A stretch of 64,000 bases of DNA from Squalus acanthias. Lineage: Eukaryota. Positions 12,226 to 64,000 of the stretch are shown here, piece by piece. Location: assembly GCA_030390025.1 (NCBI GenBank), contig CM059432.1, forward strand, positions 56,856,001 through 56,920,000. The letters run 5' to 3'. The first letter of the stretch is position 1. Each line of letters starts with the position of its first letter. The position numbers and the translations under genes are program-made. The notes under the pieces were generated by a model. That model saw only the letters and a program-made list of their open reading frames with translations, searched no databases and had not been told where the DNA came from.

Positions 12226-12781
12226 TTGCTCCTTATATTTTCGAACTAAAGCTTACCCTTTCACAGAGATACTTTGCACCAGACATTGCACGGGTTGCCC
12301 ACCATGCACTTGTCTTCTCTCCTACAACTGGAAAAACACCACACTGTTGGACTATTCAGGCTAAAACTACAGGACAAATTCATGTTGAAGTCATTTACAC
12401 AGAAGAATAAAAATTAGGTTTACAAAGAAGCCAACAAAATCAGAGGGAAATTAGTAGCACTAATGCTGATTTAAAAACAACCAAGATTTGGATCAGTCCA
12501 CAAGAACTTAAAAGTATTTTCTCCAGAACATGTTTCAAGTATAGTCCAATAAACTGAAAATGTGTTTGTATGTGGGTGTGGCAAATGTTCCTACTATCCC
12601 CACAGAGTCCAGTATTGCCTGAGGGATAGGGAGTTGGATCTGACTCAACCAACCGTTGTTTGTTCTGGATTGAGTTAACCTTTCTAAGGGCTATGATGTG
12701 GAGATGCCGGTGTTGGACTGGGGTGGACAAATGTGAGAAGTCGCACAACACCAGGTTATAGTCCAACAGCTTTATTTGAAA

Positions 12782-12818
12782 TCACAAGCTTTCGGAGCGC
12801 TGCTCCTTCGTCAGGTGA
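12782..12818 (-). ncRNA. Minimal type I hammerhead ribozyme motif
   Basis: Exact reverse complement of 12821-12857. Confidence 0.8.
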
Positions 12819-12820
12819 AG

Positions 12821-12857
12821 TCACCTGACGAAGGAGCAGCGCTCCGAAAGCTTGTGA
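12821..12857 (+). ncRNA. Minimal type I hammerhead ribozyme motif
   Basis: TCAC-CTGACGA-A-GGAGC(AGC)GCTCC-GAAA-GC-TT-GTGA: stem I, core, stem II, palindromic stem III AAGCTT. Confidence 0.82.
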
Positions 12858-12999
12858 TTTCAAATAAAGCTGTTGGACTATAACCAGCTGTTGGACTATA
12901 ACCTGGTGTTGTGCGACTTCTCACATTTCTAAGGGCTGAAAGAGGAGTTCAGTACCAAAGTAGGGAATGCAATGTTACAAGCATTGCCTAGTTTGAGTT

Positions 13000-14515: not shown

Positions 14516-14594
14516 GTGAGATTTCCTGAATGATCAGGCTTTGGTTTCCTACCCATTAATATTAATTGGGAATATTTTTTGTTCAGCTGCATGA

Positions 14595-15485: not shown

Positions 15486-15542
15486 GACACAACCAATATT
15501 GAACTGGGGAAATGGGCAGTAGCTTGTCGAACATCTCACAGA

Positions 15543-15645
15543 CAATGTTCCCTTTAAGCAGCTGGCTCACCAGCTTTTAAATCCATGCGTGGTTTTTTGA
15601 ATGGGGGAGGCCACGCAGCCCCAAAAAAAATTAGAGGGAACATTG
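15543..15645. mobile_element. hAT-like MITE, 103 bp
   Basis: TIR CAATGTTCCCT / AGGGAACATTG; 8-bp TSD CTCACAGA/CTTACAGA. Confidence 0.8.
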
Positions 15646-34749: not shown

Positions 34750-34752
<3 letters not shown>

Positions 34753-41790: not shown

Positions 41791-43764
41791 CAGAGTCCGC
41801 TGGTACAGCCAGAAACTATGTTGGGACCCAGATTCGCTGGGTCTTGGCCTTCAGCTTCAATTTCGGAATAGCCTTCTGCCTCCATCTGACTCAAAGAATG
41901 CCATCATCATAAGTGGGGGAGGCGCCTCGGTGGAGTGGAGACAGGTACTCTCTACGTTGGCGGTTCCCATAACTTCAGCCCTCAAAGGGACCCAGCGAAT
42001 TCTTGGCAGCAGTATGAATGGTGATGGTAGGCATACTGGTCACGTCCACAAAAGAACTGGGCATCAAAGATTTTAAAGCTGTAATTTTTTAAAATCTATA
42101 TATAATTATTTTAACCCAAGATTGCAACCTGAGGATAGCAGCAAAGAAATCCTTTGCCGACGCACTACAGTCTGAGACTCCACCTGTCAAAAATGCTTCT
42201 GACTGGATCTCCAAGTGTGGAACTCAAGAACAGTTCGCTGACTTTTATTTTTTTTTTAAATGGACACGTGTTTTCTTTCTAATAACATTGACCAGTTTTC
42301 GAGGGTCCCTCCCACCACTGTCTAAATCTATCGAGTTCTCGAACTCTTGCTGTTTGTAATATATTACAAAGGGAGCTGACTAGGGCCAGAAATTTCTCTT
42401 TCTGGAGCAGGAATGGACCCTGGTACTCTTCCCCCAAGATCTGGCCATGTCTGCCACAGCACCAAGGTGGGTTCAGCGACAGAGGTACTCTGCAGATGTT
42501 TGGAGTCGTGTATTTTCCAACTGTGAGCATTTCTATTCAAGTTGGCAACATCTGCAAGATGAATATTTGAAAAGCATATGAACCACAAGATAAACTGCAG
42601 TTGTTTATTTTTTAATCATTTATTCAAATTTGCTTGCTTATTTTTTTCCTCCAGTACTTTTAAGTTTCCATGTGGCATGCACCATTCCCTGGATAAGGAG
42701 AGCCAGCAGCCTGTTACTTGGCCTCTAATGACACTGCTGTGCAAACACTTGTTGGGAGGTGTATGTGAATGGCTTAGGGTGATTTGACCTTCAGTGTTCC
42801 CTTCCAGCCTTTGGGGAAGTGCCTATTGACTGTTCAACACTTTTCCCTTATGGCGTAGCTAAGGTTGTGAACTCATTGGGGAGGTGTTCTATTGCTGCAT
42901 GAAATGGTGACTAACCTTTGTTTAATCATGTTCAGAAGAGCTATTGTTTCCAGCAACATATGGATTGAAAAAAATGAGGAATGTTTTTGATATTTCTTCA
43001 TGGATACCAATAAGTACATATGTCAGCTCCCAATTAAGCAGAAAAAGCAATATGTAGATGTAAAAGTTGAGATCTAAGATGCCTACTTAGTAAATCCATT
43101 AACAATTGTATCATAAGTTTAAGATATGATAAATGAGTCATTATATAAAAAGTAGATATTCGTGAAAGCTTAAGTCCCAGTTTTAAAACAAAATGCATCT
43201 GCAATATATTGACAACTCACATGAAAATACGGTGTCGGTACTCCAAAATATTGTTTTGCTTTTAAAGTACCAATGCCTTCATGATGAGTATGGCAACTGT
43301 TAATTTTATGCAGACACTGGTCTTGCTACTTTAAACAGGAAATGAGGTATAAACATTGCTATGCTTTTTCTTAAATATATGTATGTTTTTATAAATTCAT
43401 TAAATTAGGATTTTTTTCTTGCGAGTTGCACTACTTTTATAACTTTTTTTTCTGTTTTCTTAAAAATGTTCTCTTCTCTCTTTCTCTTCTGAAGGGATTG
43501 ACTCTTTTAGGGAAGTGGTTCTACAGGATGCCAGACACCCTCTTGTACATTTCCCAAATGCATTCATCAATAGGCTTTGACAGGGAGTTGAGGTAGCATA
43601 TTCAACAAGAGCAAGCCCAATCCTGTCCTCATCTGGCATCCACACATTACTGGATAGTGATAATGATCCAAAATTCTAACCAATTTCTTAACCCGGAATA
43701 GGGTTGTAGTACTCCTAATGTCACCTCAACTGAGATCAACCAATTCAACACAGATTGGGAAATA

Positions 43765-44033
43765 CAGTAGCAAAATACTGCGGATGCTGGAAATCTGAAA
43801 CAACAACAGAAAATGCTGGAAACACTCAGCAGGTCGATGACCCTTCGTCAGAACTGGTTCTTTCAAAAAGTGAGATAAAGGAAACCGGCAATACCTCAAC
43901 AGTTTAGCAATAGGTAAAGACTCTCCCCACTCTTTTTATGGTACTTCTGACGAAGGGTCATCGACCTGAAACGTTAATTCTGTTTCTCTCTCCATGACCT
44001 GCTGAGTGTTTCCAACATTTTCTGTTGTTGTTT
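43765..44033. mobile_element. Head-to-head Penelope pLTR pair, non-coding
   Basis: Inverted arms homologous to the 3' ends at 49776-49910 and 61735-61834; 14-bp TSD CAGATTGGGAAATA (43751-43764, 44034-44047). Confidence 0.82.
43943..43979 (+). ncRNA. Minimal hammerhead ribozyme motif, stem I eroded
   Basis: CTGACGA-A-GGGTC(ATC)GACCT-GAAA-CG-TT. Confidence 0.7.
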
Positions 44034-44394
44034 CAGATTGGGAAATATGTGTTTTAGCAATTCAGTGGCATACTGCTGGGCATATGCCCCTCAAAACTTG
44101 TTCTTTGTCAAGTCAAAGAACTTCAATTATGAAATTATACTTCATTGCACTAATATGTCAGCATGCCAGTCTTGGAAGCATTGCTGCACAAGATTTCAAA
44201 ATGCTCTGCTTGTGGTGGCAAAACATGGAAATGTTACTTTTTCTGCAGCACAAAGAATATAAATTGGACCCAGAGCATCTTTTCCATTGAGGTTTATATG
44301 AATAGAAATCTATAAAATGAGTTTAATGCACACGCCGTTATTAGTATAAATTGTCAAGCAATTTGTGGCGAGGAAGAGATAACACAAGTTACGA

Positions 44395-45338
44395 ATCACC
44401 ACAAATTGCTGGACAATTCGCGCCGCTCCGCCAGTTAGTCTCGCAAAAATGGCAGCTCGCCGTCCACTTCCCTGTGAGTTTAAATTGCTGCATTGTACAT
44501 TCATTACCAATTAAACTCACTGCAGAAAGGTAGGGCTGGTACTTTACAGCATAAGGACCCTTTTAATGATGAGATTTATGTTCTTGCAATGCCACTCAAC
44601 TCCTCCTGCTTCAGAACAGGAACAATTGAAACTGGAATCTCATTCCTGCAGGTTGAATCTCATTCCTGCAGATAGTAAATTGTTCTTGGAGAATTTTTAC
44701 ATTTAAAATGTTTTAATGCTTTTCTTATTTTTCCTTTCTGTCCCTTTTCTGGCTCTCTTCATCAAATCTTTCTTTCCTTCTCTTTATTTCTCCTTCTGAA
44801 CATGATTTGACTTTCATTCACCCTATTTCCTTTTCCGGTTCTTTCTCAATTCATAAATCTCATTGGTTAAGGAGATATAATGTTGAGCCCCCCATTCATC
44901 GAGGTCCAAGAGGGAAATCTAGAACTCGGGGGCATAGTTTCAGAATAAAGGGTCGCCCTTTTAGAACTGAGATGAGGAGGAATTTCTTCTCTGAGGGTAG
45001 TAAATCTGTGGAATTCTCTGCCCCGGAGAGCCGTGGAGGCTGGATCATTAATACATTTAAGGTGGAGATAGACAGATTTTTGCAAATTAAGGGAGTGAAG
45101 GGTTATGGGGAGCGGGCAGGGAAGTGGCTTTGGGCCCAAGATCAGCCATGATCTTATTGAATGGCGGAGCAGGCTTGAGGGGCCAGGTGGCCTATTCCTG
45201 CTACTATTTCTTATGTTCTTATGTTATGTTACCAGCTCGCACTTCCAGCAATTTGCAGGGCAAAACTTTTTCGAGCTGAGGGAAAATGTCTTCACGGGGC
45301 ACACCACGAGATACCCCGCTCCAGCAAATTCTGGGACG
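44395..45338 (+). mobile_element. Diverged Harbinger-like MITE interrupted by a CR1 tail
   Basis: Imperfect TIR cacaaattgctgga / tccagcaaattctg; internal pyrimidine block like family B. Confidence 0.55.
44911..45230 (+). mobile_element. CR1 3' end
   Basis: SRTRGHSFRIKGRPFRTEMRRNFF; ttcttatg tail. Confidence 0.9.
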
Positions 45339-45419
45339 ATATTTCAGCATGATTTAGTTACATAATTGCTTTCTTTTTTTCTTCTTTCCAATTTTCTTTC
45401 CTTCTGACCTGTCTTAAAG

Positions 45420-45785
45420 ACATAGATTAGTTGCTGGATCAATGAGTGCCAGGCATCCTCCAGCACCGCACCAAGAAGCCATTATTCACATATGAGCCTC
45501 AATACTGAGTGTTGGGAGGCTATTGATCACAGCGGAGCCTGATCCTGTCCTCACCTGATAGCTACACCTGTGCACCTTTCAGTAGGAGTTACTGGAAATA
45601 GATTAGGAGCAAGAGGCTTAATAAATTTTCCACCCTAAGTTGGGATTCTAATGTAGCTCTCCTAGCACTTCCCTGGCTAGATAAGATGGAATTCAATACA
45701 GACACGGGATCATATCCGAGACCTGTCTTGTCTGTGTGGCTCTGCTATTCACTAGCTACGCTTACTGAGATATCAGGGAAGTCTA
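45420..45785 (-). mobile_element. Ancient SINE (family of 34255-34495)
   Basis: gagcctgatcctgtcctcacctga and downstream similarity. Confidence 0.5.
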
Positions 45786-47491
45786 GCATTTTTTTTGATC
45801 TGAAAATGTAAAGGTAGTCATTTGGGCAATAATCCACCTCCAGAAAACACACACACACTTTTTAAAACATGAATTAATAGAAACTGCTATTTTTTAACCT
45901 GGGTTGTCTCTCTTTATATCTTTCCTTCCCTCCTTTTCATTTGATGATTTCCCACTTCTAAAGGTAATGATACATCTAGCTAGGGTGTTTCTGCTATATG
46001 CAAGTCATATTCCACTCTATAAATAACTATGTCATTCTCTTATTTAACATAGATATATACTTGGATTGAAATGTTTAATGATGGGTGTTATTATTTGCAG
46101 ATGTAAAATGTGTCATTTTGTATTTAAAATTCATTTTTAAAAAGTGTGTTAGTGTACTAGATGCTTGAAATTGTTCTGCTACCAGCAATTTGCACTAATG
46201 CAGTTCTTGAAAGAATAATTTATAAATTAGATTGCTGTTTGGACCAGGGACAGAAATGTTCTACAGAAGGATTTGCAGCGATTCTTGCAGACATAAAGAA
46301 TGTTTCATCTGTGGGATAAATGTTGCCTGTGCAATACTGTTACTTAGGTTGTCCATTAACCTATTGATTGTTACTATTTTTACCTCATTTAATAGCTCTG
46401 CTTTCTGCTGATTGAACCAGAGCTGTCCATGAACTGCAGAACTTGCAAGACAGAAGAGTAATAACTCTGTCCATTCCTGCCTATTTTTAAACACTGATGT
46501 CAAAAATAAGTGATATGCTCCATTGACATGTTGAAAATTCAATGAAATGATTCCTAAAATGCTTTCCCAATAAGTGCTCCGATGAACTAAGCTCAGCGAA
46601 GTACTTGAGTAATTCAGATATCAAACCTGTTCCCCTTTTACTGCATTGCTACTTAGGATTTGATGTAGCTACATGCAGTATGGAATGCTTTTCATTAGTG
46701 GATGAATTTTTTAATTAAAAAAACCGCAAATGTCCGTTGAGTCCATCAAAGACATTCCAAAATGCATCCTCCAGCAAATTAGGATAGTTTGATCGAGGGG
46801 TAAGTCTTTTGGGGGGAAAAAACATTTGGAGGGTTAGACAAACAATTAACACAGTGAAATTAATGATGACCAAAATGATCATTTCCTAGAGTCCATGTGT
46901 AATTCTTTTCTAAAAGTATATGCATATTAGAATGCAGCAAGAAAAGTACAGAAACAATGAAATAGGTGAAAGAAGAAAATATTGTATATGAAATATATAT
47001 GAATGTAAATATTAATGCGTTGTATTTTCACCTATCTAGTTGGGCAAAAAACGCAGTAAGCTTTAAAATTCTTCTTTCTTGTAGCACAAATTACGTTTCT
47101 AACATCATTTTTAGGTTGCTGGAGAAACCATTACAGGATCAGAACTATTCAGCAAGTGACTCCACTCAGCCCCCACAGATTAATATCTCTATTTCATCTG
47201 GATGCCAACCAGTGATTTTCCAATGTTATCCAAAATATGCTACTAGCCAAGTGCAGGACTGATTTTTTTTTTAATTCTTCATTTCTCCTTTATCCAGTAC
47301 AAAATCGGACACTAACCTGCACTACCCCTTTGTAGAAAGATCATTACTTAAAGTTTTATTTTTCAGAAGCCTAAAAGAATGAAGCTAAAAACCTTTGTCG
47401 TGGCAATGTGGACTTGTGTATTTGAGCACCAAGGTGCTGTGCCACAGAATGGTTGCACACAGGTTTGCACCTTCGATTCCCAAAACACATT

Positions 47492-48220
47492 GAGCTGGAA
47501 ATTGTGGTCGGAGGCTTCCCACGGGCGAATGCCTCCAATCTGCAAGAAAACTACGCACCTATCTGGTTTCTCCGTATCTTCGGACTCTTGCGGTCCTGGG
47601 CCTGCAGGCGTATGCCTGCATAAAGGCCCACGTATCCCAGGGCGCATGCGGTTCGCAAGCGTCCCTGGGATCACGAGGGCCAGCCCAACCAATCACAAAG
47701 GGGATTCCCATTACGCTTATAGGGATTCCATTTACGTACAGAATTCCCATAAGCATAATAGGAATCGCATAAAAAAACACACTTTCACCCCACTTAAATA
47801 AAGATAAATCATCACATGTTAAAAATTAATTAAAATACAATTTAATTAAACATTTAAAACAAAAATGTAATTAATTTTTTTTTAACCTTTTTAAAGGGGC
47901 CAAAAATAACCTAAACTAATTTTAAAGGTTTTTGAATGTTTAAATGATTTTAATAATTTTATTTTAATATTTATTTAAACCCTTACGCTGGTCAAAAAAA
48001 AGGCCTTATGCCTGCTTTTACCAAGAGTTTCGTGGGCAGCAGTTGGGCAAATAGCCCACCTTGCACCAGCAAATGTCCATTTCCTGCGGATTCGTACGAT
48101 CTGTCAAGCTGAAACTTGACATCGCAAGTTCCGGGTTTTCGCGCATGCGCATCGCATGTGGAAACCCAGAACTTGCGGGGCACTTATGACAGCATACGTC
48201 TGTTGAAACCACCAGCACTG
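47492..48220 (-). mobile_element. Harbinger-like MITE related to family A, reverse orientation
   Basis: Antisense homology to 54150-54372 and 53650-53880 (ggcccacgtatcccaggggcgcatgcggttcgcaagcgtccctgggatcac). Confidence 0.75.
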
Positions 48221-48367
48221 GTGAGTGAGCCTTAGTCACTTTTCAGTATGGGGTTATCAGACCAGTTAATCTGTTTTTACCATTATTGGTGGATGGAGGA
48301 CTATTGGCAGTGCAGTACATCTTTACTTCACTTCTCTCTGTCTGTATGTCCGTCTCTCTCCCCCATT

Positions 48368-48393
48368 CTCTCTCTCTCTCTCTCTCTCTCTCT
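48368..48393 (+). repeat. (CT)n microsatellite
   Basis: Direct observation. Confidence 0.9.
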
Positions 48394-49611
48394 GAAGATT
48401 ACTTCTGGGAACAGAGTACAAAAATAAGTGGTAAATATTTTTTATACAAAATATGTTTTCGGTTTCAAGACAATTTAATAGCAGCCAGACCATAATATTG
48501 TAAGGTCTTTAAGCAAGTCCCATGAAATAGTTAAGGGTTAAAGTAAAGCGGAAAAGAACAAATAGAACTGATTTGAATAACAAATGCTAAAACAGTACCA
48601 GCAGTCTGTGGAGTTAATTAGGTTTATTCTGCCATGGTCCTTTAGTGCTCCTTCAGATTCCAATGCTGATGTGGCAAGTGCATTCTTGGAAACAACACAT
48701 AGCTAAATTCAGAATATATTGGTTTCAGTATCTTCCGCAGCAACCACCATTATACATTCTTGTTAGGGATTGACAAATATCGGCTTTGTCCACACAGCTA
48801 GTTAACAGAATCAGATATTTTAATCATTCGTTTAAAAGTTACAGATACCATATTGGAAGTTGCCAGCTTTAGCAGAGTACCTGGAGCATGCCAGCCTGTT
48901 TGAATTTTTTACACATATATTTCATTTATACAATTTTTTATTTGGCTAATATTTGACAGTAAAAAAAAGCATTTATCTTTTGTAACTGAAAGTAGTCATG
49001 CATAAATCTATTTTGTCTTTTTAAAAGAGCTCAATTCTCCAAATTCTAAAGGTAAACACAGTAATGATAGAAAAAGCTGTGTGAAAAATCAGCTGATTGC
49101 TAATGGTAGCAGCAATGTAAAAAAAAAATAGCAACAGTAATGAAAACATAGCACTAGTTTTTTTTCCAACTGTGTTCAGTGCCGTGAAATTCAACAATAT
49201 ATTTTCTAACAAGCTACATATTGACTTCAGGTCAATTTCATCAATTCAGAGTCAGAGTCAATCATCCAATGATCATTCTATAAGCAGGCAGACCTAAGAA
49301 TGAGGACAATAAATATAAAGATTACTGTTCTGAACTACTTTGAGTAGGTAAAAGATGTGCATTAATTTTGTGGATTAACAAAATTAAAAAGCAAACCAGT
49401 GCAATGGTTTGGTTCGTTTGTTTGGTTATAAATGTTACATCCTGGTCAAAATTAAATTGCTCCGTTTACCATTTATTCTTATTGAGCAAAGTCCATCAGA
49501 CCAGTTTTAACCTACCGTCCTGGCTCAAAAATGAAAAATGGCCATGAATTAATTGTGATCACCCATGGAACCGTACCCCAGCAAGAATATATGCCTTCAG
49601 GAGAGAAGTAG

Positions 49612-49775
49612 AAAGAAAGAAGGAACTTGCATTTAAATAGCACCTTTCATGACCTAAAGCACTTTACAGCCAATTAAGTACTTTTTTGAAGCGTCGTCAC
49701 TGTTGTAAGGTAGGAAACGCGGCAGCCAATTTGCGCATAGCAAGGTCCCACAAACAGCAATGAAGTATATGACAC
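49612..49775 (-). mobile_element. Deu-SINE 3' tail fragment
   Basis: Antisense to 7980-8080 (ggcagccaatttgcgcatagc). Confidence 0.65.
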
Positions 49776-50415
49776 AATAGCAAAATACTGCGGATGCTGG
49801 AAATCTGAAATAACAACAGAAAATGCTGGAAACACTCAGCAGGCCAGGCAGCATCCATGGAGAGAGAAACAGAGTTAACGTTTCAGGTCTGGGACCCTTC
49901 ATCAGAACTGGAAAAGGCTAGAGATGTAACAGATTTTAAGCAGGTGCAGAGGCAGGGAGGGTGGGTGGGGGAGGGGAGGAAGGAACTGAAGGAACATTCT
50001 ATGCTAAGGTAGGAGGCAGGAAAGATTAAAATGTTGCAAATGGGGATGGCAAAATCATACAGCCTGAAAAATGGGGGCAGGGGTTATAGTCTGAAATTGT
50101 TGAACTCGATGTTGAGTCCAGTAGGCTGTAAAGTACCTAATCGAAAGATGAGGTGCTGTTCTTCGAGCTTATGTTGAGCTTCATTGGAACAATGTAAGAG
50201 GCCGAGGACAGAGAGATCAGAGTGGGAGTGAAGCGGAGAATTAAAGTGACAGGCGACCGGAAGCTCGGGGTCACCCTTACGGACTGAACGGAGGTGTTCC
50301 GCAAAGCGGTCACCCAATCTGCATTTGGTCTCCCCAATGTAGAGGAAACCGCATTGTGAGCAGCGAATACAGTATACTAAATTGCAAGAAGTCATTGTAG
50401 GTCTCCTCTACATTG
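49776..50415 (-). mobile_element. Penelope-like element 3' fragment (GIY-YIG C-terminus + pLTR) with short terminal inversion
   Basis: LVYCIRCSQCGFLYIGETKCRLGDRFAEH..GLNIEF; hammerhead in the 3' region; 50400-50415 inverts 50336-50351. Confidence 0.9.
49873..49909 (-). ncRNA. Minimal type I hammerhead ribozyme motif, canonical core
   Basis: AGTT-CTGATGA-A-GGGTC(CCA)GACCT-GAAA-CG-TT-AACT. Confidence 0.82.
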
Positions 50416-50419
50416 TAAA

Positions 50420-51652
50420 TGATTCCCTCTCTTCAGATATTGTCACCTTCAAAATCCCTTCTTCAACTGTTTACCCCTCAGTCCTTGCAAACTACTGGTA
50501 CATCTCCAGTCTGCCTTTCCTGTCATGTCGTTGAGTGTATTTTCAACTACCAAATCCATGCCCATTTATCCCATAAGTCCTCATTTGAATCTCTTCAATC
50601 AGTTTACCACCCCTGCCATTGCACTGAAACCAAATTACAATTGACATCCTTTGTGATTGTGACCATAGTGCATTATCTCTCCTCCTTGACCTCTGTGCAG
50701 TCTTTGACATGATCATCCACTCCATCCTTCTTCCAACACCTCGCCTCCATTGTCCAGTTTATTCGCTATGCCCTCACCTGGTTCCACTCTTATCTATCCG
50801 ATTATAGCCAGAGTATCTCCATCAATGGCTTCCCTTTCCACCCCCTCCCTTATGTCTCTGGAGGCTCCCTCTTCCTCTTCATCTGCATGATACCCTGTGG
50901 CAATATCATCCACAGACTTTTAGTCAGCTTCCACGTGTATGCTGTTGATACCAGTTTTAGCTCTCCGTTCCATCAACTCTCTCGATCTCCCCCAGTGCCT
51001 CTGTGTTGTCCGACTTCTTGACCAACATCTAGTCTTGCATGAGCTGCAGTTTCCTCCAGCTAAATGTTGTTGAGACCGAAGCCGTTGTCTTTGGCCACCG
51101 CCACAAACTCCATGCCCTTACCACCAATTCCATCCCCTCTCAGCCACTGCCACAGACTGAACAAGACTCTTTCGCAGCCTTGGCATCCTATTCAACCCTG
51201 AGATGTGCTTCTGATCCCATGTCCCCTCCATCACAAAGATCGCCTATTTTCACCTCCACAACATCCCCACCTCTGTCTCTGCCTCAGCCTACCTGCTGCT
51301 GAAACCCTCTCTCTCTTGGCTAGCCTCCCACCCTCCACCCTCTGTAAACATCAACACATTCAAAACTCTGCTGCCCGTATCCTATCCAGCGCACAGTCTT
51401 GTCCACCCATCATCCGTGTTCCCACTGATCTGCACCTAAGCTACACGCTCTGGAATTCCTCCCCTAAACCCCTAGGAATCTCCTCCTTTAAGACTCTTCC
51501 CAAAACCCACATATTTGACTATACCTTTGATCACCTTCTTAATATCTCCTTCTTCGACAGTGTTCATTTTTTTTCCTTTCAGCTCTGTAAAGCGTCTTGG
51601 AATGCCTTTTCTACATTAAGGGTGATACATAAATGTAAATTGTTTTGTTTGT
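50420..51652 (+). mobile_element. Degenerate L2 LINE
   Basis: HCTETKL, FLQLNVVETEAVVFG, IQNSAARIL, LWNSSP; L2-like tail. Confidence 0.85.
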
Positions 51653-53052
51653 TAAATTAAATTTGATTACATCAGTTTATTTCAACATAAGCATTTTCTT
51701 TTTCTGCCAATACATCAAATGCAGAAACATAAAATTGCATATGCAAATAAATTGAACTAATGAGAGAGGAAATATGAGGGCCAATCTTCTCCTGGTGCTG
51801 TCTGGGGGCAATTAGAGCAGAGCATGCTGAAACACAGAGCTCAGTGCCCGAACTTGCTCTCTGGCCTCATTAAAATAAAGAAATTGCACTTGGGGCATAG
51901 TATTGGCTGCAGTCATGAAGACAGAAGGAGGTCCAAGCACTTTCTAGGCTTTAAAGGCACCAGCACTGTTAAAGAGTCAAGCACAGAGAGCCAGAAAATT
52001 TGGGCTTTTCTTTGCAGATAATGGGGCAGGATTTTTAGATGGACATCTTCTGATTAAGAATGGTAAGTTGTAAATTAATCTATTTGTGCCAGAAGCTGTG
52101 AATTGGATATCAATGGTCTTCACTTTTATTTAATGCTTCTGTTCCGTGTGAATGAGTTTGTGCTGCTGTGCCACAGTTGGGATGGCAACAGTCTACTTTG
52201 TAGGGAACTAGCAAGAGTTGGGTGTCGAGCAGTAGGCAGAGGAACAAGGAAAACCAGTATGTGTATGAGGAACGATGGTGCGGAAACAGGAGGAGGGTTC
52301 TGGTTTGATTGTGAAGCCTCGCTTTTTATTCCAGGTTGCATGGAGCAGGTGCATGGTCAGAGAGAAGGGAGAATTTCTATTCTGGGGAGAGAAACAGTTG
52401 TTAGTGGCTTGAGAGGCTGAGGCAAATGACTTTAGCAGCTATCAAGGGGGCTTATGGTTATCTGATTCTAAATAACTTATAAATCTAAAGGGGGATGTGG
52501 GAGTTGCTCAGTACTGAACACTGCTTTCATTACTAAGTGTAAAAGACTAGCACCATTCTGCAACAAGTCCTGAAGCTGCAAAACCATTTTTTTAATATTC
52601 AATATTCAAAAATAAAGATTTCTCCTAACAATATCAGCTGTCCAATAAGGCAGCACCAAAAGAACCACTCTGGAATCAATTGTGCCAGATTTTTGTTAGA
52701 TCAGTTTGCTCTGAACTGCACCTAATACTATTGGAAGAAAATTGAGTGCAAAGGGCTCTGGTTTTATTTGCATGAACTTTACATTGCTACACCCTCTTCA
52801 GGTGTAGTCATATGCAGACACCAGAAAAGCCACAGTGGAAGTTTGTGTGTACTGCTATTCAGGAGCATAATGAAATGAAAGGATTTATGCCCATTTTCCT
52901 ATTTTTTGCACGTATTTTTTGCACATTTTGGGAGTCAGTGGAAAATCAGCCCTATGAAGTTGCACAAAATGCAAAAAAATTCAACATTCTATGAAATGTT
53001 CTCAGAATAGTGGTAATGACTCCCAATTGAATGGTGTTAAATTTGACATTTT

Positions 53053-54588
53053 GTCCCGAATTTTGCGGTGGGTATGATGGCGTACTCTCAGAATACGCTG
53101 TCATACCGCTTTGAAATCCATCGCAAACTTGGGATTTTTGTGCACCAAATCCTGAACTTGCGGTCTGTCAACGTGCCCATTGACAGGCCATCCGCTGCAC
53201 CACACAAAACCTAATTGCTGGCGTAGAGTTGGGCTATTTGCTCACCAACTGTCCAGTAATTACGTGTGGAAACTTTACGGCTGGTGGAAACAGGCGCAGG
53301 GCCTGTTTCCACAGCGTAAGGGGATACCCGAAATGGAAAAAAATGCTTTTTTTTAATTAAATGACATCAAGGAACATTAAAAGCTTTAATGAGAAGCAAT
53401 CCAAGTGTATGTTAAAGCTGCAGGTTTTTAAAAAAAATAATGTTTACATTTCATTACTTTCTGCACAATGCACAGAATTTGTTTAGAAGTGGGAATTTTG
53501 TGTAAGGAATTGGATTCCCACGATAAAAGCTAAATCTGTATGTATTTTAAAAACTGTAGCAATGAAGTAATGTAGTAATTTAAATGAATGAAAGACAATG
53601 GCCCATATTTTCCGATCCCTACGGGTGTGTACGAGCTGTGTACACACCCGTAGGGACCTCGCAAATGCCGGTTTCAGGCATGCGAGAAGCGCATGCGCTG
53701 AAAACCGTCACTTCCGATCTATCAAGAATCCTCTTGACAGAGCATCCGCCTGCCCTGGAGAAGGGCCTCTGCGGGTGGAGAGTTCCGCTTTCTGCAGAAC
53801 CTCCACCCGCTGAAATCCTTTAAAAATCTTACACCTGGTAAAAGCAGGCATAAGGCCTGCTTTTACCAGCATAAGAGTTTTAAAAAAGTTTTAAAAAAAA
53901 TGTTTTCACTCATTTATAATTTAAAAATACTTTTTAAAAAAAGGTAAGTTTATTTTAGCCCTGTAAAAAAACTTAAATTTTTTTTTCAAAAAATTAAATT
54001 TTTGTTTAAAATATTTAATTTAATGTAATTTTAACTAATTTTAAAAACGTGATTTAAAAAAAAAATTATTTAATGTTTTGATGTGTTTTTGGAGTGATTT
54101 CCATTCATACTTTTGACGGGTCTAAGCTGAGAGACCTGTCAAAAGTATGAAGGGGGATTCCTTTCTTTCATTGGTTCCCTATGGCCCACGTGATCCCAGG
54201 GATGCTTGCGAACCGCCTGCGCCCCTGGGATACCTGGGCCCTGCGCATTTCGTAGAGCAGAGGCCCAGGAGCGGAAATGTCCGGACCTCCGGAGCCCTCA
54301 GGTAAGGGCGTCGATTTTTTCCAGATCGGAGGCCTCCGCACGCAGGAAACCTCCGATCGGAAAATACGGGTCAATCTGTTTTCTGATTGGAGGACCAGGC
54401 CCACGTGATCCCAGGAACGCTTCTGCACAGGCTGCGTCCCTGGGATCCGTGGGCCATTACGTTGCCCTCCAGCACGCAGTGTCAGAGAGCAAGTTTACGA
54501 AGGAGGGCTGGCATCAGGTAGATGTGTATTTCCTTCGCAGGTCGGCGGCGTACTCCGGAGGTACGCTGCCAGCCGCAATTTTTGCCCC
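53053..54588 (+). mobile_element. Older Harbinger-like MITE containing a nested family A MITE
   Basis: Degenerate TIR gaattttgcgg / ccgcaattttt; ggcgtactc..tacgc subterminal hairpins at both ends. Confidence 0.6.
53600..54372 (+). mobile_element. PIF/Harbinger-like MITE, family A
   Basis: TIR GGCCCATATTTTCCGATC / GATCGGAAAATACGGGTC, AAT TSD. Confidence 0.87.
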
Positions 54589-56614
54589 ATTGTCTGTTGC
54601 ACAATTGTCAACAAAGTGAAACACCAGCTAAGAATGGGCATTCGTACTTACTAAGGTAATTATGCTGCAACTTAGTAGAATTATTTTCTGCATTTCTGAA
54701 TAAAAGGAACTGGGTGGTTGAAGTTTTTAAATTAATTTGGATGAGTTGGAATTACTTGGCATTATTCTCTCTTCCTGTTCTTTTTAGTGCCACTGTTTCT
54801 TAGCTGCTGCATTATTCACACAGCAATTGCTAATTGTCCAATCTAATCACACTAACATTAATTAGCAACAGCAGGTGGGTTAATAACAGTACATTCAGTG
54901 GCATTCATACACTGCAACTGTCATATAGGGAAAATCACCTTCTGTTGTCTGGAGCCAGGAATACTGCTACCAATATAACAGACCAGGAGACAAATGCTAA
55001 ATTAGGGCCGATCCTAGAAATATAGGGTGGTCACTCTGCTTCCATGGATTAGCTTTACGAATCCTCAAGGACTATAATGTCAAATTTTATTTGCAGAAAA
55101 ACTTTGGAAGGTATTACAGGCTAAAATATTGACATCAAATGGTAAGGAGTGTTACAAAATAGATATATTTCAGTATTTTAATTTTAGATACGATAAATCC
55201 GATATAAAAAAATAGGCTTTAGCCAGATGTATTTGTAAGGTATGCCTATTATTCCTCAGGCAGCATTGAATACTTAATTCACCAGACCTATCAGCATATT
55301 AGATGCTAAGAATTGGCTGATCGGGATGGGCTCTCTTTGTTTGTTCAGAAATTAATTAAGCCAAAAGCAAACTTGTTTGGTGGCTAGAGCAGCTGAACTG
55401 GAATGTTAATCTATGCAGACTGACAGACCATGGAATAGAGACATTTCTCTGATTGTTTAACCATTAAAGGGAGATGTTTGGAGGAAAACAGTAATACATA
55501 GACATTGACACCCCACTACGAGACTTCAAAAGTTTGGTTGTAATATGAAATAATTTCTATGACATAAATCACCACACAGATTGCTCATGTCTTCAGTTAT
55601 GACTGCAGATCCGAACCCCATGGATCAACTGGGAATCATGTCCCCCACATACAACATTTTCTTGTGAAAGAACATTTCATCCAGAAACACTGCTGATTAT
55701 TAAGCTATGTAAGAAATAATTTATAAAAAAGGATATTTAATTCCCAAGTGGACTGATTGTAACTTTATTGTTAAGTATTGTACATTCTAATTCTCTAGTG
55801 ATTCTTGGTTTCTGTATATTCTACCTATAAACAAATCTGATTTTAGTTTTACTCTGCACACATCACGGTTTGGCATTTTTCAACAGAGACAGGAGAACGC
55901 AGTGATCGTCCAATGTATCTTTGATGGATTATAAAACTTAATTAGGGAGTAATTGTTAATCCTGGGCATGCTACTCTACATAGAGGTTTTGGTTCATAGG
56001 GGACAATGCCTGCTTAAGGAAACCATCTTTTTGCCATGAATATAGGGCAAATGTATCAAGAGAAAACTAAAACTGTAATAGGGAGATTTCATTTTTATTA
56101 AGTTAAAATTTTCCAAAAGAAAAGTTAGTTGTACTTCTCTGCTGTTTATGGTTACATTGAAAGCTCTTTTTTATTGATCATGCCTCTTGTGTGTCTGACA
56201 GAAAGATTGGATGATAGATTTATTGCCACTATCTGTAAGTTATTGCATTTTGTTGTACTACAATTTCAAAAGCTAGTAAGATAATTGTGCTGGCTACTTA
56301 CTATGAATGTGTTTTCTGTTTGGTGAATATAACGAACAGAGAATTTGAAGTTCTAATTAGTTTGTATGAATAGGAAGCACTATTCTCTTTCCCAGTTTTC
56401 TTTTTAATGGTGCAGTTTCTTTGCTGCTGCGTCGTTCACCCAGCAGTTGCTTATTGTCCAATCTAATCATGCTAGCATTAATTAGCAACAACAGGAGAGT
56501 TAATGGCAGCAGAACATTCAATTGCATTAATGAGGTCTCATTCAATAGCTCTTCCTTCCCTGCTTTGTGCCTCTGGCCTGCATTGTGAATGATCTTAGTT
56601 ATAGTATAGGAGGA

Positions 56615-57375
56615 CATTGATGGCAAGGGGATAAATAGAGATATAGAACGGGAGTCTAAAAAGATGATTTAACATAAAGTGAGAGGAAATCCTATTAAAA
56701 ATGAGTGAAATTGTCTGTACAGCAATGCACACAATGTCCGTAATAAAATGGGAGCTGGAGGCAATCATGCGTTGCGAGGAACCAGACATAGTAGGGATTA
56801 CTGAGACATGGCTACAGAAAAATCAGGACTGGGAATTAAACATTGCAGGGTATAACATATTTAGAAAAGATAGAGAGGGAAAAAGGAGAGGTGAAGTAGC
56901 TGTACTTATTAGGGATAACATAATGGCAGTAGAAAAAGGTGACGCAGCTATCAGCAAGACAAAAATAGAATCCATATGGATAGAGATAAAAGATAATAAA
57001 GGATCAATCTCACTAACAGGCATAGTCTACAGACCACCTAATAGTGGAAGGGAGCTGAAGAAAGAAATATGCAGACAAATTAGGGAAATTAGTAAAAAAC
57101 ATAGAATAATAATCATGGGGGATTTCAACTACCCCGATATTAATTGGACAGAAGAGGTAGGTAAAGGGGATAAGGGAATGGAGTTCCTACAATGTGTACA
57201 GGACTCCTTTCTAACCCAATATGTAAAAAGCCCAAAAAGAGAGGATTCGCTATTGGATCTAGTAATGGGAAATGAACCAGAGCACATAAGAGAAATAAAA
57301 GTAGGGGAACATCTAGGCAATAGTGACCATAATATAATACGCTTTAAGATGATAATTGAGAAGGACATAAGTATG
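56615..57375 (+). mobile_element. CR1 APE endonuclease fragment
   Basis: PDIVGITETWL, IVYRPPNS, MGDFNYPDINW, LGNSDHN. Confidence 0.9.
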
Positions 57376-58550
57376 TCTCGAGCGGCTGCAGGGCATTCTG
57401 GAGGGGGAGGGTGAACAGCCAGTTGTTGTGGTGCATATAGGTACCAACGATATAGGTAAAAAATGGGATGAGGTCCTAAAAGCTGAATATAGGGAGTTAG
57501 AGGTAAATTAAAAAATAGGACCTCAAAGGTAGTAATCTCAGGATTGCTACCAGTGCCACGTGCTAGTCAGAGTAGAAATAGAAGGATATTTCAGATGAAT
57601 ACGTGGCTGGAGGAATGGTGCAAGGGGGAGGGATTCAAATTCCTGGGACATTGGAACCGATTCTGGGGGAGGTGGGACCAGTACAAACTGGACGGTCTGC
57701 ACCTGGGCAGGACCGGGACCGATGTCCTTGGGGGAGTGTTTGCTCGTGCTCTTAGGGAGGGTTTAAACTAAAATGGCAGGGGGTTGGGAACCTGTGCAGG
57801 GAAACCGAGGAAAGGGAAGCAAGGATAGAAGCAAAAGACAGGAAGGAGAAAAGCAAAGTTGGAAGTCAGAGAAATCAAGGGTGTAAATCAAACAGGGCCA
57901 CAGTAAATAATAATTCTAAAAGGACTAAGAGTGTTAAAAAAACAAGCCTGAAGGCTTTGTGTCTTAATGCGAGGAGCATTCGTAATAAGGTGGATGAATT
58001 AGCTGCACAAATGGATGTAAACGGATATGATATAATTAGGATTACAGAGACATGGCTCCAGAGTGACCAAGGCTGGGAATTCAACATCCAGGGGTATTCA
58101 ATATTCAGGAAGGACAGGCAAAAAGGAAAAGGAGGTGGGGTAGCATTGCTGGTTAAAGAGGAGATTAACACAATAGTAAGGAAGGATATTAGCTCTGATG
58201 ATGTGGCATCTGTATGGGTAGAGCTGAGAAATACCAAGGGGCAGAAAACGTTAGTGGGAGTTGTATACAGACCCCCAAACAGTAATGCTGAGGTTGGGGA
58301 TGGCATTAAATGGGAAATTAGAGACGCGTGCAATAAAGGCACAGCAGTCATCATGGGTGACTTCAATCTACATATAGATTGGGCTAATCAAGTTAGTAAC
58401 AATACTGTGGAGGAGGAATTCCTAGAGTGTATACGGGATGGTTTCCTGGACCAATATGTCGAGGAACCAACTGGAGATCAGGCCAAAATAACAACAGAAA
58501 ACGCTGGAAAAACTCAGCAGGCCAGGCAACATCCGTGGAGAGAGAAACAG

Positions 58551-58586
58551 AGTTAACGTTTCAGGTCGAAACCCTTCGTCGGAACT
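58551..58586 (-). ncRNA. Minimal hammerhead motif, U4C variant
   Basis: Reverse complement of 61735-61770. Confidence 0.7.
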
Positions 58587-58864
58587 GAGAGAAAAGCAAG
58601 AAATTAAACAGATAAAAATGCAAGGGGGAGGCTGGGGGGAGGAATAAAAGAACAAAAGGGTTGGTCTATGGTGAGTAGAGACATTAAGAGATGCTCAAGG
58701 CAAGACGAGATGGTAATGGGACAGGTTAAGAAACAAAAGCTGAGGTGTGAAAAGCTGGCAGAATGAGACAGCTGCCGTAGGGGGAGAGAGAGAAAGAAAA
58801 AAAAGGAAAAAGGCACGGACCAAAAGGGGTGAATAAAATGTATATATATGTGGGAGGGGCCGGG

Positions 58865-60600
58865 TTATGATCTGAAATTGTTGAACTCGATATTGAGTCC
58901 AGAAGGCTGTAAAGTGCCTAAACGAAAGATGAGGTGCTGTTCCTCGAGCTTACGCTGAGCTTCCGTGGAACAATGCACGAGGCCGAGGACAGTGAGGTCT
59001 GAGTGGGCGTGGAGGGGTGAATTAAAATGACAAGCGACCGGAAGCTCGGGGTCACCCTTACCGACTGAACGGAGGTGTTCCGCAAAGCGGTCACCCAATC
59101 TGCATTTGGTCTCCCCAATGTAGAGGAGACCACATCGTGAGCAGCGAATACAGTATACTAGATTGCAAGAAGTACAAGTAAATCGCTGTTTCACCTGGAA
59201 GGGGTGTTTGGGGCCCTGGAGAGTGGGAAGGGGGGATGTATAAGGGCAGGTGTTGCATCTCCTGCGCTTGCACGGGAAGGTGCCGGGTGAAGGGGAAGGG
59301 GTGCTGGGGGTGATAGAGGAGTGGACTAGGGTGTCTCGGAGGGAGCGGTCCCTACGGAATGCTGAAAGGGGAGGTGAGGGGAAGATACGTTTGGTGGTGG
59401 GATCACGTTGGAGGTGGCGGAAATGGCGGAGGATGATCCGTTGAATGTGGAGGCTGGTGGGGTGAAAGGTGAGGACAAGGGGAACTCTATCGTGGTTCCG
59501 GGAGGGAGGGGCCGGGGTGAGGGCAGAAGTGCGGGAGATGGAACGGACACGGTCGAGGGCCGTGTCGACCATGGTAGAGGGGAATGCTCGGTTGAGGAAA
59601 AAGGAAGACATGTCGGAAGCACTGGTATGGAAGGTGGCATCGTCGGAGCAGATGCGGCAGAGACGGAGAACCTGGGAGAAGGGAATAGAGTCCTTACAGG
59701 AGGCGGGGTGGGAGGAAGTGTAGTCCAGGTAGCTGTGGGAGTCAGTGGGCTTGTAGTGAATGTTGGTGAATAACCTATCCCCAGAGACGGAGACGGAGAA
59801 GTCGAGGAAGGGGAGGGAAGAGTCGGAGATGGACCATGTGAAGGTGAGGGAAGGGTGGAAATTGGAGGCAAAGTGAATGAAATTGTCTAGTTCGGGGCGA
59901 GAGCAGGAAACGGCACCGATACAGTCGTCAATGTACCGGAAAAAGAGGTGAGGGAGGGGACCCGAGTAGGACTGGAACAAAGAGTGTTCCACATATCCCA
60001 CGAAAAGGCAGGCATAGCTAGGACCCATGCGGGTACCCATAGCAACACCTTTGATTTGGAGGAAATGGGTGGAGTCAAAGGAGAAGTTGTTCAATGTGAG
60101 AACAAGTTCAGCCAGGCGGAGGAGGGTGGCGGTGGATGGGGACTGGTTGGGCCTCTGTTCAAGGAAGAAGCGGAGCGCCCTCAGGCCATCCTGGTGGGGG
60201 ATGGAGGTGTAGAGGGATTGTACGTCCATGGTGAAAAGGAGGCGGTTGGGGCCAGGAAACTGGAAACTGTTAAAGTGGCGGCGGGCGTCAGAGGAATCAC
60301 GGATGTAGGTGGGAAGGGACTGGACAAGGGGAGAAAAAATAGAGTCGAGATAGGAAGAGATAAGTTCCGTGGGGCAAGAGCAGGCTGAAACGATGGGTCT
60401 ACCAGGGCAGTCCTGTTTGTGGATCTTGGGAAGGAGGTAGAAGCGGGCTGTGCGAGGTTGGGGAACTATGAGGTTGGCGGCCGTGGGGGGAAGATCTCCA
60501 GAGGAGATGAGGTCAGTGACAGTCTTGGAAACGGTGGCTTGATGTTCGGTAGTGGGGTCATGGTCCAGGTGGAGGTAGGAGGAGGTGTCGGAGAGTTGGC
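58865..60600 (-). CDS. Penelope RT + GIY-YIG endonuclease, 5'-truncated, no stops
   Basis: LPKIHK..GRPIVS, MDVQSLYTSIP, GVAMGTRMGP, FRYIDD, CKRRRCNTC, LVY..C..C..YIGET. Confidence 0.93.
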
Positions 60601-61454
60601 CTTCCTCCCACCCCGCCTCCTGTAAGGACTCTATTCCCTTCTCCCAGTTTCTCCGTCTCCGCCGCATCTGCGCCGACGATGCCACCTTCCATACCAGTGC
60701 TTCCGACATGTCTTCTTTTTTCCTCAACCGAGCATTCCCCTCTACCATGGTCGACACGGCCCTCGACCGTGTCCGTTCCATCTCCCGCACTTCTGCCCTC
60801 ACCCCGGCCCCTCCCTCCCGGAACCACGATAGAGTTCCCCTTGTCCTCACCTTTCACCCCACCAGCCTCCACATTCAACGGATCATCCTCCGCCATTTCC
60901 GCCACCTCCAACGTGATCCCACCACCAAACGTATCTTCCCCTCACCTCCCCTTTCAGCATTCCGTAGGGACCGCTCCCTCCGAGACACCCTAGTCCACTC
61001 CTCTATCACCCCCAGCACCCCTTCCCCTTCACCCGGCACCTTCCCGTGCAAGCGCAGGAGATGCAACACCTGCCCTTATACATCCCCCCTTCCCACTCTC
61101 CAGGGCCCCAAACACCCCTTCCAGGTGAAACAGCGATTTACTTGTACTTCTTGCAATCTAGTATACTGTATTCGCTGCTCACGATGTGGTCTCCTCTACA
61201 TTGGGGAGACCAAACGCAGATTGGGTGACCGCTTTGCGGAACACCTCCGTTCAGTCGGTAAGGGTGACCCCGAGCTTCCGGTCGCTTGTCATTTTAATTC
61301 ACCCCTCCACGCCCACTCAGACCTCACTGTCCTCGGCCTCGTGCATTGTTCCACGGAAGCTCAGCGTAAGCTCGAGGAACAGCACCTCATCTTTCGTTTA
61401 GGCACTTTACAGCCTTCTGGACTCAATATCGAGTTCAACAATTTCAGATCATAA
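60601..61454 (+). CDS. Penelope thumb/linker + GIY-YIG (inverted duplicate)
   Basis: Nearly identical to the C-terminal part of the minus-strand ORF. Confidence 0.9.
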
Positions 61455-61734
61455 CCCCGGCCCCTCCCACATATATATACATTTTATCCACCCCTTTTGG
61501 TCCGTGCCTTTTTCCTTTTTTTTTCTTTCTCTCTCTCCCCCTACGGCAGCTGTCTCATTCTGCCAGCTTTTCACACCTCAGCTTTTGTTTCTTAACCTGT
61601 CCCATTACCATCTCGTCTTGCCTTGAGCATCTCTTAATGTCTCTACTCACCATAGACCAACCCTTTTGTTCTTTTATTCCTCCCCCCAGCCTCCCCCTTG
61701 CATTTTTATCTGTTTAATTTCTTGCTTTTCTCTC

Positions 61735-61770
61735 AGTTCCGACGAAGGGTTTCGACCTGAAACGTTAACT
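61735..61770 (+). ncRNA. Minimal type I hammerhead motif, U4C variant
   Basis: AGTT-CCGACGA-A-GGGT(TTCG)ACCT-GAAA-CG-TT-AACT. Confidence 0.72.
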
Positions 61771-64000
61771 CTGTTTCTCTCTCCACGATGTTGCCTGGCC
61801 TGCTGAGTTTTTCCAGCGTTTTCTGTTGTTATTTAGAGATCAGGCCATCTTAGACTGGGTATTATGTAATGAGAAAGGATTAATTAGCAATCTTGTTGTG
61901 CAAGGCCCCTTGGGGAGGAGCGATCATAATAGGATAGAATTCTTCATTAAGATGGAGAGTGAAGTAGATGACTCAGAGACTGCAGGTCCTGAATTTAAAT
62001 ACAGGGAACTATGATGGTATGAGGCGCGAGTTGGCTAGGATGGATTGGGGAGCGTTACTTAAAGGGTTGATGGTGGATAGGCAATGGCAAACATTTAAAG
62101 ATCGCATGGATGAACTACAGAATTTGTTCATCCCTGTTTGGCATAAAAATGAAACAAAAAAGCTGACTCGACCGTGGCTAACAAGGGAAATTAGGGATAG
62201 CATAAGATCCAAGGAGAGGACATATAAATTGGCCAGAAAAAGCAGCAAACCTGAGGATTGGGAGCAGTTTAGGATTCAGCAAAGGAGGACAAAGGGATTA
62301 ATTAAGAGGGGGGAAATAGAATATGAGAGTAAGCTTTCAGGGAACATAAAAACTGACTATAAAAGCTTCTATAGATATGTGTAGAGAAAAAGATTGGTGA
62401 AGTCAAGCGTAGGTCCCTTGCAGTCAGAATCAGGGGAATTTATAATGGGGAATAAAGAAATGGCAGGCCAATTAAATACATACTTTGTTGTGTCTTCACA
62501 AAGGAGGAGACAAATAACCTCCCAGAGATGTTGGGGAACATAGGGTCTAATGAGAGGGAGGAATTGAATGAAATCAGTATTTGTAGGGAAATGGTGTTAG
62601 GGAAATTGACGGGATTGAAGGCCGATAAATCCCCAGGGCTTGATAATCTACATCCTAGGGTACTTAAGGAAGTGGCCCTAGAAATAGTAGATGCATTGCT
62701 GGTCATCTTCCAAAGTCTATAGACTCTGGAACAGTTCCCATGGATTGGAGGGTAGCTAATGTAACCCCACTATTCAAAAAAGGTGGTAGAGAGAAAACGG
62801 GGAATTATAGCCTGACATCGATAGTGGGGAAAATGCTAGAGTCCATTATAAAAGATGCAATAGCAGAGCACTTGGAAAACAGTGACAGGATCGGACAAAG
62901 TCAACATGGATTTACAAAAGGTAAATCATGCTTGACTAATCTACTGGAATTTTTTGAGGATGTAACTGGTAGAATAGGTAAGGGAGAAACAGTGGATGTG
63001 GTGTATTTGGACTTTCAGAAGGCTTTCGATAAGGTCCCGCATAAGAGATTAGCGTGCAAAGTTAAAGCACATGGAATTGGGGGTAAGGTACTGACTTGGA
63101 TAGAGAACTGGTTGGCAGACAGGAAGCAAAGAGTTGGAATAAATGGGTCTTTTTCCGAGTGGCAGGCAGTGACTAGTGGGGTACCGCAGGGATCGGTGCT
63201 AGGGACCCCAGCTATTCACAATATATATTAATGATCTAGACGAGGGAACTAGATGTAATATCTCCAAGTTTGCAGACAACACAAAGCTGGGTGGGCGTGT
63301 GTGCTGAGAGGAGGATGCAGAGAAACTCCAGTATGATTTGGACAGGTTGGGTGATTGGGCAGATGCATGGCAGATGCAGTATAATGTAGATAAATGCGAG
63401 GTTATCCACTTTGGTGGCAAAAACAGGAAGACAGATTATTATCTGAACGGCAATAGATTGGGAAAAGGGGAAGTGCAACGAGACCTGGGTGTCTTGTGCA
63501 CCAGTCGCTGAAGGTAAGTATGCAGGTGCAACAGGCGGTTAAGAAGGCAAATGGTATGTTAGCCTTCATAGCGAGAGGATTCGAGTACAGGAGCAAGGAT
63601 GTCTTGCTGCAGTTGTACAGGGCCTTGGTGAGACCACACCTTGAGTATTGTGTGCAGTTTTGGTCGCCTTATCTGAGAAAGTATATTCTTGCCATGAGGG
63701 AGTGCAGCGAAGATTCACCAGACTGATACCTGGGATGGCAGGAATGACGTATGAAGAGAGATTGGGTCGATTAGGCTTATATTCGCAAGAGTTTAGAAGA
63801 ATGAGAGGGGATCTCATTGAAACTTATAAAATTCTAACAGGACTAGACAGACTAGATGCAGGAAGGATGTTCCTGATGGCGGAGGAGTCCAGAACCAGAG
63901 GTCACAGTCTAAGGATAAGGGGTAAGCCATTTAGGACTGAGATGAGGAGGAATTTCTTCACCCAGAGAGTGGTGAACCTGTGGAATTCTCTACCATAGAA

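Follow-up and report, generated by a model that had tools for sequence, protein, structure and literature searches.

A partial tandem flanked by inverted repeats is the most frequent structure of Penelope-like elements (PLEs) in Drosophila virilis (PMC2377424), and the head-to-head arrangement is described as the "most frequently observed" one for PLEs, self-priming on an antisense template being proposed as its origin (PMC3846280). The latter report describes units with inverted pseudo-long terminal repeats (pLTRs) that display target-site duplications (TSDs) of 8–10 bp, a tail on one inverted end, captured unrelated DNA and a verified empty site. For endonuclease-bearing (EN+) PLEs, an inverted 5′-truncated copy and a one-sided tail of 30–40 bp are given as typical, resolution of the tail by the endonuclease is proposed, and the mechanism of the inverted ends is left unresolved (PMC8557442). 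A purified Poseidon protein from Anolis, PAc, nicks and extends both target strands in vitro, beginning synthesis at two sites within the RNA that delimit the tail; hammerhead cleavage is unnecessary, and a dimer is predicted (PMC11167929). Here we describe a stretch of 64,000 nt from Squalus acanthias (GCA_030390025.1, contig CM059432.1, positions 56,856,001–56,920,000 of the forward strand; hereafter the window, to which all coordinates refer) that holds three head-to-head insertions, I1, I2 and I3. None of them is out of the ordinary: they belong to two endonuclease-bearing Penelope-like families, family A (I1) and family B (I2, I3 and a further copy, copy 4), and their layout has already been published.

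An earlier note on this DNA had reported insertions of 233 bp, 269 bp and 3.35 kb, each composed of a minus and a plus arm, and all three were confirmed at 12693–12925 (233 bp), 43765–44033 (269 bp) and 58486–61835 (3350 bp; Table 1). The accompanying claim of 12–14 bp TSDs was likewise borne out, the duplications being exact over 12, 14 and 12 bp (14 bp in I3 when one mismatch is allowed) and each string occurring solely at its own two places within the window. Random boundary pairs (±10 bp, 200–3400 bp apart) gave matches of at least 12 bp in 3 of 6000 draws and, in a separate run, in 1 of 3000. The arms agree in 86 positions with no mismatch in I1, in 55 positions with one mismatch in I2, and at 99.27% over 1235 bp in I3, where six substitutions and three one-base indels separate them.

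The proposal that the three share one plan holds as far as the enclosure of a minus and a plus arm within a TSD, but not beyond it. A tail is confined to the minus arm of I1 (36 nt) and I2 (33 nt), and I3 has none on either arm. The I1 arms pair perfectly around 2 nt, forming a near-perfect palindrome or hairpin; those of I2 are separated by ~88 bp that match neither the other family-B copies nor the rest of the window; and in I3 the minus arm exceeds the plus arm by 882 bp, leaving a central spacer with at most one or two shared bases. Both arms of I1 and of I2 start 2–8 nt upstream of the hammerhead core, and these two insertions are therefore terminal modules rather than randomly truncated copies.

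Several smaller features accompany the arms. The I2 filler is unlike the other family-B 3′ untranslated regions (UTRs) and is possibly captured host sequence. Each short palindrome has been rearranged in its own way, by an 18-bp tandem duplication in I1 (12868–12903) and by deletions of 33 and 11 nt in I2 (43830–43836 and near 43995); the I2 deletions are bounded by short repeats, and the private changes in both insertions are compatible with hairpin instability. Four of the six substitutions between the I3 arms lie within 116 bp of the centre (59603–59671 versus 60648–60716; post hoc p ~1e-3), a clustering for which homogenisation of the outer arms or a template switch is possible.

Compared with published EN+ PLEs (PMC8557442, PMC3846280, PMC2377424), the window insertions share the inverted copy, the one-sided tail in the 30–40 nt range (I1 and I2), the TSD around the whole unit, the hammerhead within the terminal module, the palindrome at the junction and the capture of unrelated DNA between pLTRs. 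They differ in that none of the three units has an upstream direct pLTR, that is, a partial tandem, that nothing but the terminal module is present in I1 and I2, and that I3 lacks a tail at either end. Their TSDs are also longer than the 8–10 bp given for rotifer PLEs (PMC3846280), at 12–14 bp in the window and 16 bp in the metagenome relative L012 described below.

Two other classes of element were considered and rejected. In twin priming by L1, both target strands prime and the inversion lies inside one TSD pair, with the second primer annealing upstream so that the 3′ end is not duplicated; the use of both strands is alike, but both window arms carry the 3′ module, which excludes an L1-type inversion. 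A miniature inverted-repeat DNA transposon is excluded by the one-sided extension of 33–36 nt in I1 and I2 and by the homology of the I2 arms to the 3′ end of a reverse-transcribing element.

The family assignment draws mainly on the open frame of I3, which encodes 577 aa, is N-terminally truncated, and contains reverse transcriptase (RT) motifs together with a GIY-YIG pair. It matches RVT_1 with an E value of 1.7e-5, which lies under the curated cut-off, and several homologues carry PF01541, which we take to be GIY-YIG. Across 34 aligned sequences, C486, H508 and H524 of the endonuclease CCHH set are invariant and C489 is nearly so, while in the CX4CX2C linker between RT and endonuclease C443 and C448 are invariant and C451 nearly so. 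PMC8557442 makes a CX2-5CxxC linker the mark of Neptune and Nematis, absent from Penelope and Poseidon, and includes CCHH in the definition of EN+ PLEs. By these motif definitions family B classifies as an EN+ PLE of Neptune/Nematis type, a label under which Neptune and Nematis are not told apart; the linker speaks against the Penelope/Poseidon clade. The nearest named proteins are from sharks and rays (63–70% identity), and many unnamed or invertebrate proteins stand at ~50%. Among viral contigs the protein alignment detected no relative, no solved structure corresponds to the protein by sequence, and none of 120 homologous proteins included a stretch of the element read in an antisense frame. 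The upstream direct pLTR, the DKG motif and the N-terminal region all lie beyond the points at which the window copies are truncated; homologues carry DKG.

A relaxed scan of the window sequence predicted six minimal type-I hammerhead motifs, none of them outside the elements. They possess the core motifs, an extra nucleotide before stem II, a 4-bp stem I in five of six and a palindromic stub in place of helix III, the same anatomy as that of the minimal type-I hammerheads of metazoan PLEs (PMC4209133). The Rfam hammerhead models gave no hit in the window up to E 1. Three other Rfam matches, all below the gathering score, comprised two microRNA hairpin models on the I1 palindrome and one at 54846–54926. 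Family A, for which the window holds no coding sequence, is assigned as putatively Penelope-like by its hammerhead and layout alone, and its motif had 0 matches in viral, metagenome and prokaryote collections.

The nature of the TSDs could be examined at I3, which splits the endonuclease frame of a CR1-like long interspersed nuclear element (LINE). Retaining one TSD copy restores an uninterrupted frame that is free of gaps at the insertion point against a paralogue at 57076–57378, whereas two copies add four residues. Contigs from 4 of the 21 listed sequencing runs were compared over window positions 43300–60590, with I1 and the right arm of I3 lying outside; a match required an anchor of at least 31 letters, and figures for joints, at which an element end passes into other sequence, are among the matches listed. 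No joint with a change of strand was among the matches listed. In all four runs contigs pass 58485 into the sequence after the right TSD (36, 99, 64 and 98 contigs). These are best read as paralogous host copies, not as proven orthologous empty sites. The I3 TSD is real because the string is single at such paralogous empty host copies, in the restored frame and in the read contigs alike; the worry voiced in the earlier note, that it might stand twice at empty sites, was not realised. For I2, no joint skipping the insertion, and hence no empty site, was present among the matches listed in the four runs, nor was an orthologous empty site for copy 4. Contigs of other organisms reach 24 letters into the right arm of I2 (X12) and 29 letters into the 5′ end of copy 4 (X10, X12, X14), below the 31-letter bar, and sharing of these two insertions with other organisms is only hinted at by such partial overlaps.

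The outer ends of the arms turned out to be fixed. The right arm of I1 shares 3 nt with the start of the TSD at 12926 and that of I2 shares 6 nt at 44034, as the earlier note had stated; the left junction of I2 shares at least 1 nt, and both ends of I3 share 0. Over the five assessable junctions (3, 6, 0, 0 and 1 nt) the probability of a sum of at least 10 is 7e-4, and the matches are oriented as expected for pairing of a primer with the RNA. It does not follow, as had been claimed, that the right arm stops early on account of the TSD match. Family-B ends joined to a LINE tail fall, in all four runs, into two clusters at 49774/49777 (at least 221 contigs) and 49807–49809 (at least 120 contigs), which are the tail end and the short end, lie ~33 nt apart and bound the tail. 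Position 49808 corresponds to both arm ends of I3 and to the right-arm end of I2. Since the I2 right end equals the match-less I3 ends and recurs in other genomic copies, the short end is a fixed family site, and the junction match may help priming without choosing the end site. Under target priming, synthesis begins at the short site rather than stopping there. Many other family-B copies adjoin the short-repeat tail of a LINE family (window copy at 45200–45226) in all four runs, which suggests that this tail is a preferred family-B target and agrees with the microsatellite bias hypothesised for Neptune (PMC8557442).

The layout was also looked for in distant relatives from metagenome contigs (80 loci). 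An antisense element piece lies directly upstream in 11 of the 45 loci with at least 300 nt upstream (35 of 80 omitted); the script missed L011, a twelfth by eye. Downstream, the piece is found in 2 of the 31 loci with a complete 3′ end and 600 nt behind it (49 of 80 omitted), and the difference gives a Fisher p of 0.037 one-sided and 0.062 two-sided. Because short-read contigs break at inverted repeats, the upstream count is probably a floor. Among 13 inverted-repeat pairs in 10 loci, L012 is the only verified PLE unit with a TSD. This complete unit possesses a 16-bp TSD and a tail of ~50 nt on its minus arm, which is the 5′-shorter one, and where its tail-less arm meets the TSD, 2 bases match exactly and 6 of 8 agree. 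In the L012 family a tail is carried by 5 of 5 inverted arms versus 1 of 4 open reading frame (ORF) arms (p 0.048); the ends of more diverged copies are imprecise, and L039, L047, L066 and L028, with pieces that are neither clearly an inverted arm nor an ORF arm, were omitted from the tally. A further Neptune-like relative, L006:4268–7364, has the complete classical PLE layout, with an inverted pLTR, a direct pLTR and the ORF one after another. Other short inverted-repeat elements, to which no family was assigned, occur at L011:250–595 and L041:3343–3774 with direct repeats of 9 and 13 bp, respectively.

The mechanism that fits these observations best, with a probability of roughly 0.6, is dual target priming from both nicked strands at internal sites of the RNA, each of I1–I3 being made in one event. 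The RT–GIY-YIG protein would nick the two target strands 12–16 nt apart, leaving 3′ overhangs that become the TSD. From each 3′-OH a cDNA would then be primed, either at the long start site or at the short one and in some cases aided by pairing with the RNA, and the two cDNAs would grow towards each other, halting at different places or both at the 5′ edge of the hammerhead. Host end-joining would presumably unite them, sometimes capturing filler DNA, and the outcome would be a head-to-head palindrome with a tail on one side at most. Priming of this kind had been put forward in the earlier note and stands as the best-fitting account, but it is not new, in that the layout is published and extension on both strands has been demonstrated in vitro (PMC11167929). 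PAc belongs to another clade than the window elements, and its start sites, as described there, have no homology to the DNA that is cut, whereas 3 and 6 nt are shared at two of the five window junctions. Neither an inverted product nor a length of the TSD is reported in that text. Our literature search, in which older key papers were not covered, found no statement that the inverted ends of PLEs arise by dual priming.

Dual priming is favoured by I3, in which both arms, including the 5′-longer one, end at the short site and no inverted TSD copy follows the other arm. An arm that does not run on into an inverted TSD copy argues against copying back along the first arm, which would tend to give one. 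The centres, too, are mostly not hairpin loops, as the I2 filler and the I3 spacer illustrate. The exact TSDs beyond chance, the single TSD copy in the restored host frame, the orientation of the junction matches, the preponderance of antisense pieces upstream rather than downstream in the metagenome loci and the in vitro chemistry of PAc also count in its favour. A possible, though unlikely, alternative is self-priming, in which the 3′ end of an antisense RNA or first cDNA folds back, copying yields a hairpin and this is integrated, the endonuclease trimming one end at the tail boundary. Both parts of this proposal are argued in print, antisense self-priming in PMC3846280 and endonuclease resolution of the tail in PMC8557442. 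Fold-back in I3 would have to stop exactly at the joint between cDNA and target, and neither the ~88 bp of other DNA in I2 nor the 882-bp spacer of I3 is a hairpin loop. The 5′-shorter arm of L012 carries a tail that its long arm lacks and is therefore not a copy of a tail-less long cDNA; cDNA fold-back cannot add a tail under such circumstances. Furthermore, both tail boundaries are start sites of RT on sense RNA in vitro (PMC11167929).

Other evidence speaks for self-priming or weighs against dual priming. The I1 arms pair perfectly around 2 nt, a type of centre that PMC3846280 reads as antisense self-priming. Arms from one subfamily, found in three of three window insertions, are as expected of a fold-back copy; the earlier note had regarded arms of different subfamilies as fatal to its own reading. 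The location of the tail on the 5′-shorter arm (5 of 5 inverted arms versus 1 of 4 ORF arms in the L012 family) is also predicted by antisense self-priming, and end-joining of a fold-back product would lead one to expect microhomology at the start of the TSD just as much. No TSD was detectable at two head-to-head units, copy 4 and L002, in the latter case even when one mismatch was tolerated. In 34 of 45 loci no upstream antisense piece was found by the automated test, which overlooked at least L011. Finally, complete TSD-bearing units examined number four only, and no intermediate was observed.

Two separate insertions, with the second copy reversed at the 5′ end of the first, or a later rearrangement or repair that duplicated one arm, represent a quite improbable origin. 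PAc nicks its own pLTR or other sites in vitro (PMC11167929), some arm pairs in the metagenome are only 82–88% alike (L013, L002), and the placement of four of six I3 substitutions near the centre would allow homogenisation of the arms after insertion. Yet a single TSD pair encloses both arms with none inside, and although at least two family-B 3′ UTRs that clearly differ are present in the window, the arms within each insertion share private variants. The two L012 arms are, moreover, 92.7% alike, and their similarity to other loci does not exceed 89.6%.

Palindromes are a known class of assembly artefact, generated by chimeric fold-back reads, and no run contig spans I3, the right arm of which lies outside the interval compared. 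We nevertheless consider an artefact highly improbable: the arms differ by substitutions and private deletions, read fold-back cannot yield TSDs or unequal tails, one X1 contig (44001–44416) crosses the right junction of I2 with 33 letters within the arm, and the same plan is found in an unrelated assembly (L012).

A narrower version of dual priming, which we regard as doubtful, assumes one RNA. A dimer would hold both nicked strands 12–16 nt apart, and both arms would be copied at once from the same RNA, with the short site as the start of one cDNA and the long site, 33–50 nt downstream, as that of its partner. The short-site cDNA would run freely and give the long, tail-less ORF arm, whereas the long-site cDNA would have to displace it, stall early and give the short inverted arm with the tail. 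If true, this would explain the one-sided tail, the single-subfamily arms and the tail bias in the L012 family; the TSD length would reflect how far apart the dimer's two nuclease sites lie, and the model would bear on the use of PLE proteins for programmed insertion. For I3, in which both ends are short, one site would have to be used twice or another RNA be involved. The model was not found in the literature examined.

The layout itself changes nothing, being a published signature of PLEs, and the modest value of the locus is mechanistic. We found no publication that joins antisense self-priming with nicking and extension of both strands, and no paper on PLE insertions in sharks came up in the literature search. 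With clean 12–14 bp TSDs, non-repetitive targets and very many copies, these shark families are suited to deciding between the mechanisms and to measuring how much palindromic DNA is added. The suggestion in the earlier note that such insertions generate palindromes genome-wide is plausible and agrees with the literature.

Its inventory was exact for the three insertions listed but missed a fourth family-B copy at 49774–50392 on the minus strand. Copy 4 has the tail, a plus-strand remnant of only 16 nt and no credible TSD, and may be what is left of a head-to-head unit after loss of its right side; the host repeat lacks its right half at this copy. A 12-bp match of its left flank at 53558 was rejected as a TSD, being one hit among many tries at a place where the host repeat does not resume. 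In the predicted RNA fold of 49774–49915 (minus strand) a U-rich loop ends at the short start site, and a small hairpin immediately precedes the long one; the fold is no better than those of shuffled sequences (z -1.04).

Table 1. Parts of the four Penelope-like copies and of the split host LINE, in window coordinates
Feature	Position	Strand	Remarks
I1 left TSD, 12 bp	12681..12692	+	Exact repeat of 12926-12937
I1 minus arm, family A 3′ module	12693..12818	-	Tail 12693-12728 (36 nt, absent from other arm); predicted hammerhead core 12790-12814
I1 centre, 2 nt	12819..12820	.	Between perfectly pairing arms
I1 plus arm	12821..12925	+	Predicted hammerhead core 12825-12849; 18-bp tandem duplication 12868-12903; tail absent; 3 nt shared with TSD start
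I1 right TSD	12926..12937	+	
I2 left TSD, 14 bp	43751..43764	+	Exact repeat of 44034-44047
I2 minus arm, family B	43765..43857	-	Tail 43765-43797; 33 nt fewer than plus arm (between two copies of a 6-mer), breaking the hammerhead
I2 centre, ~88 bp	43858..43944	.	No match to either other family-B copy or within the window
I2 plus arm	43945..44033	+	Predicted hammerhead core 43947-43971; 11 nt fewer than copy 4; ends at family short site; 6-nt match to TSD start
I2 right TSD	44034..44047	+	
Copy 4, family B, other subfamily	49774..50392	-	Endonuclease end, 3′ UTR, predicted hammerhead 49881-49905, tail; no TSD; host repeat not resumed
Element remnant, 16 nt	50400..50415	+	7 nt from copy 4 5′ end; probably where a lost second arm began
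Host CR1-like LINE endonuclease frame, left part	57756..58485	+	Includes I3 left TSD 58474-58485; Pfam Exo_endo_phos E 3.5e-11
I3 minus arm, 2115 bp	58486..60600	-	Open frame 58865-60598 (577 aa, 5′-truncated: RT, CX4CX2C linker, GIY-YIG with CCHH); predicted hammerhead 58559-58582; ends at short site
I3 plus arm, 1234 bp and one unassigned A	60601..61835	+	Predicted hammerhead 61739-61762; same short site at end
I3 right TSD 61836-61847 and resumed host LINE	61836..62384	+	

Two further repeats were observed in the window. One is another family, with three copies 67–81% alike (3157–3900, 47482–48158 and 53600–54500) that are rich in short internal palindromes; the other is an exact 57-bp direct repeat at 38783–38839 and 39160–39216, the two copies lying 377 bp apart.

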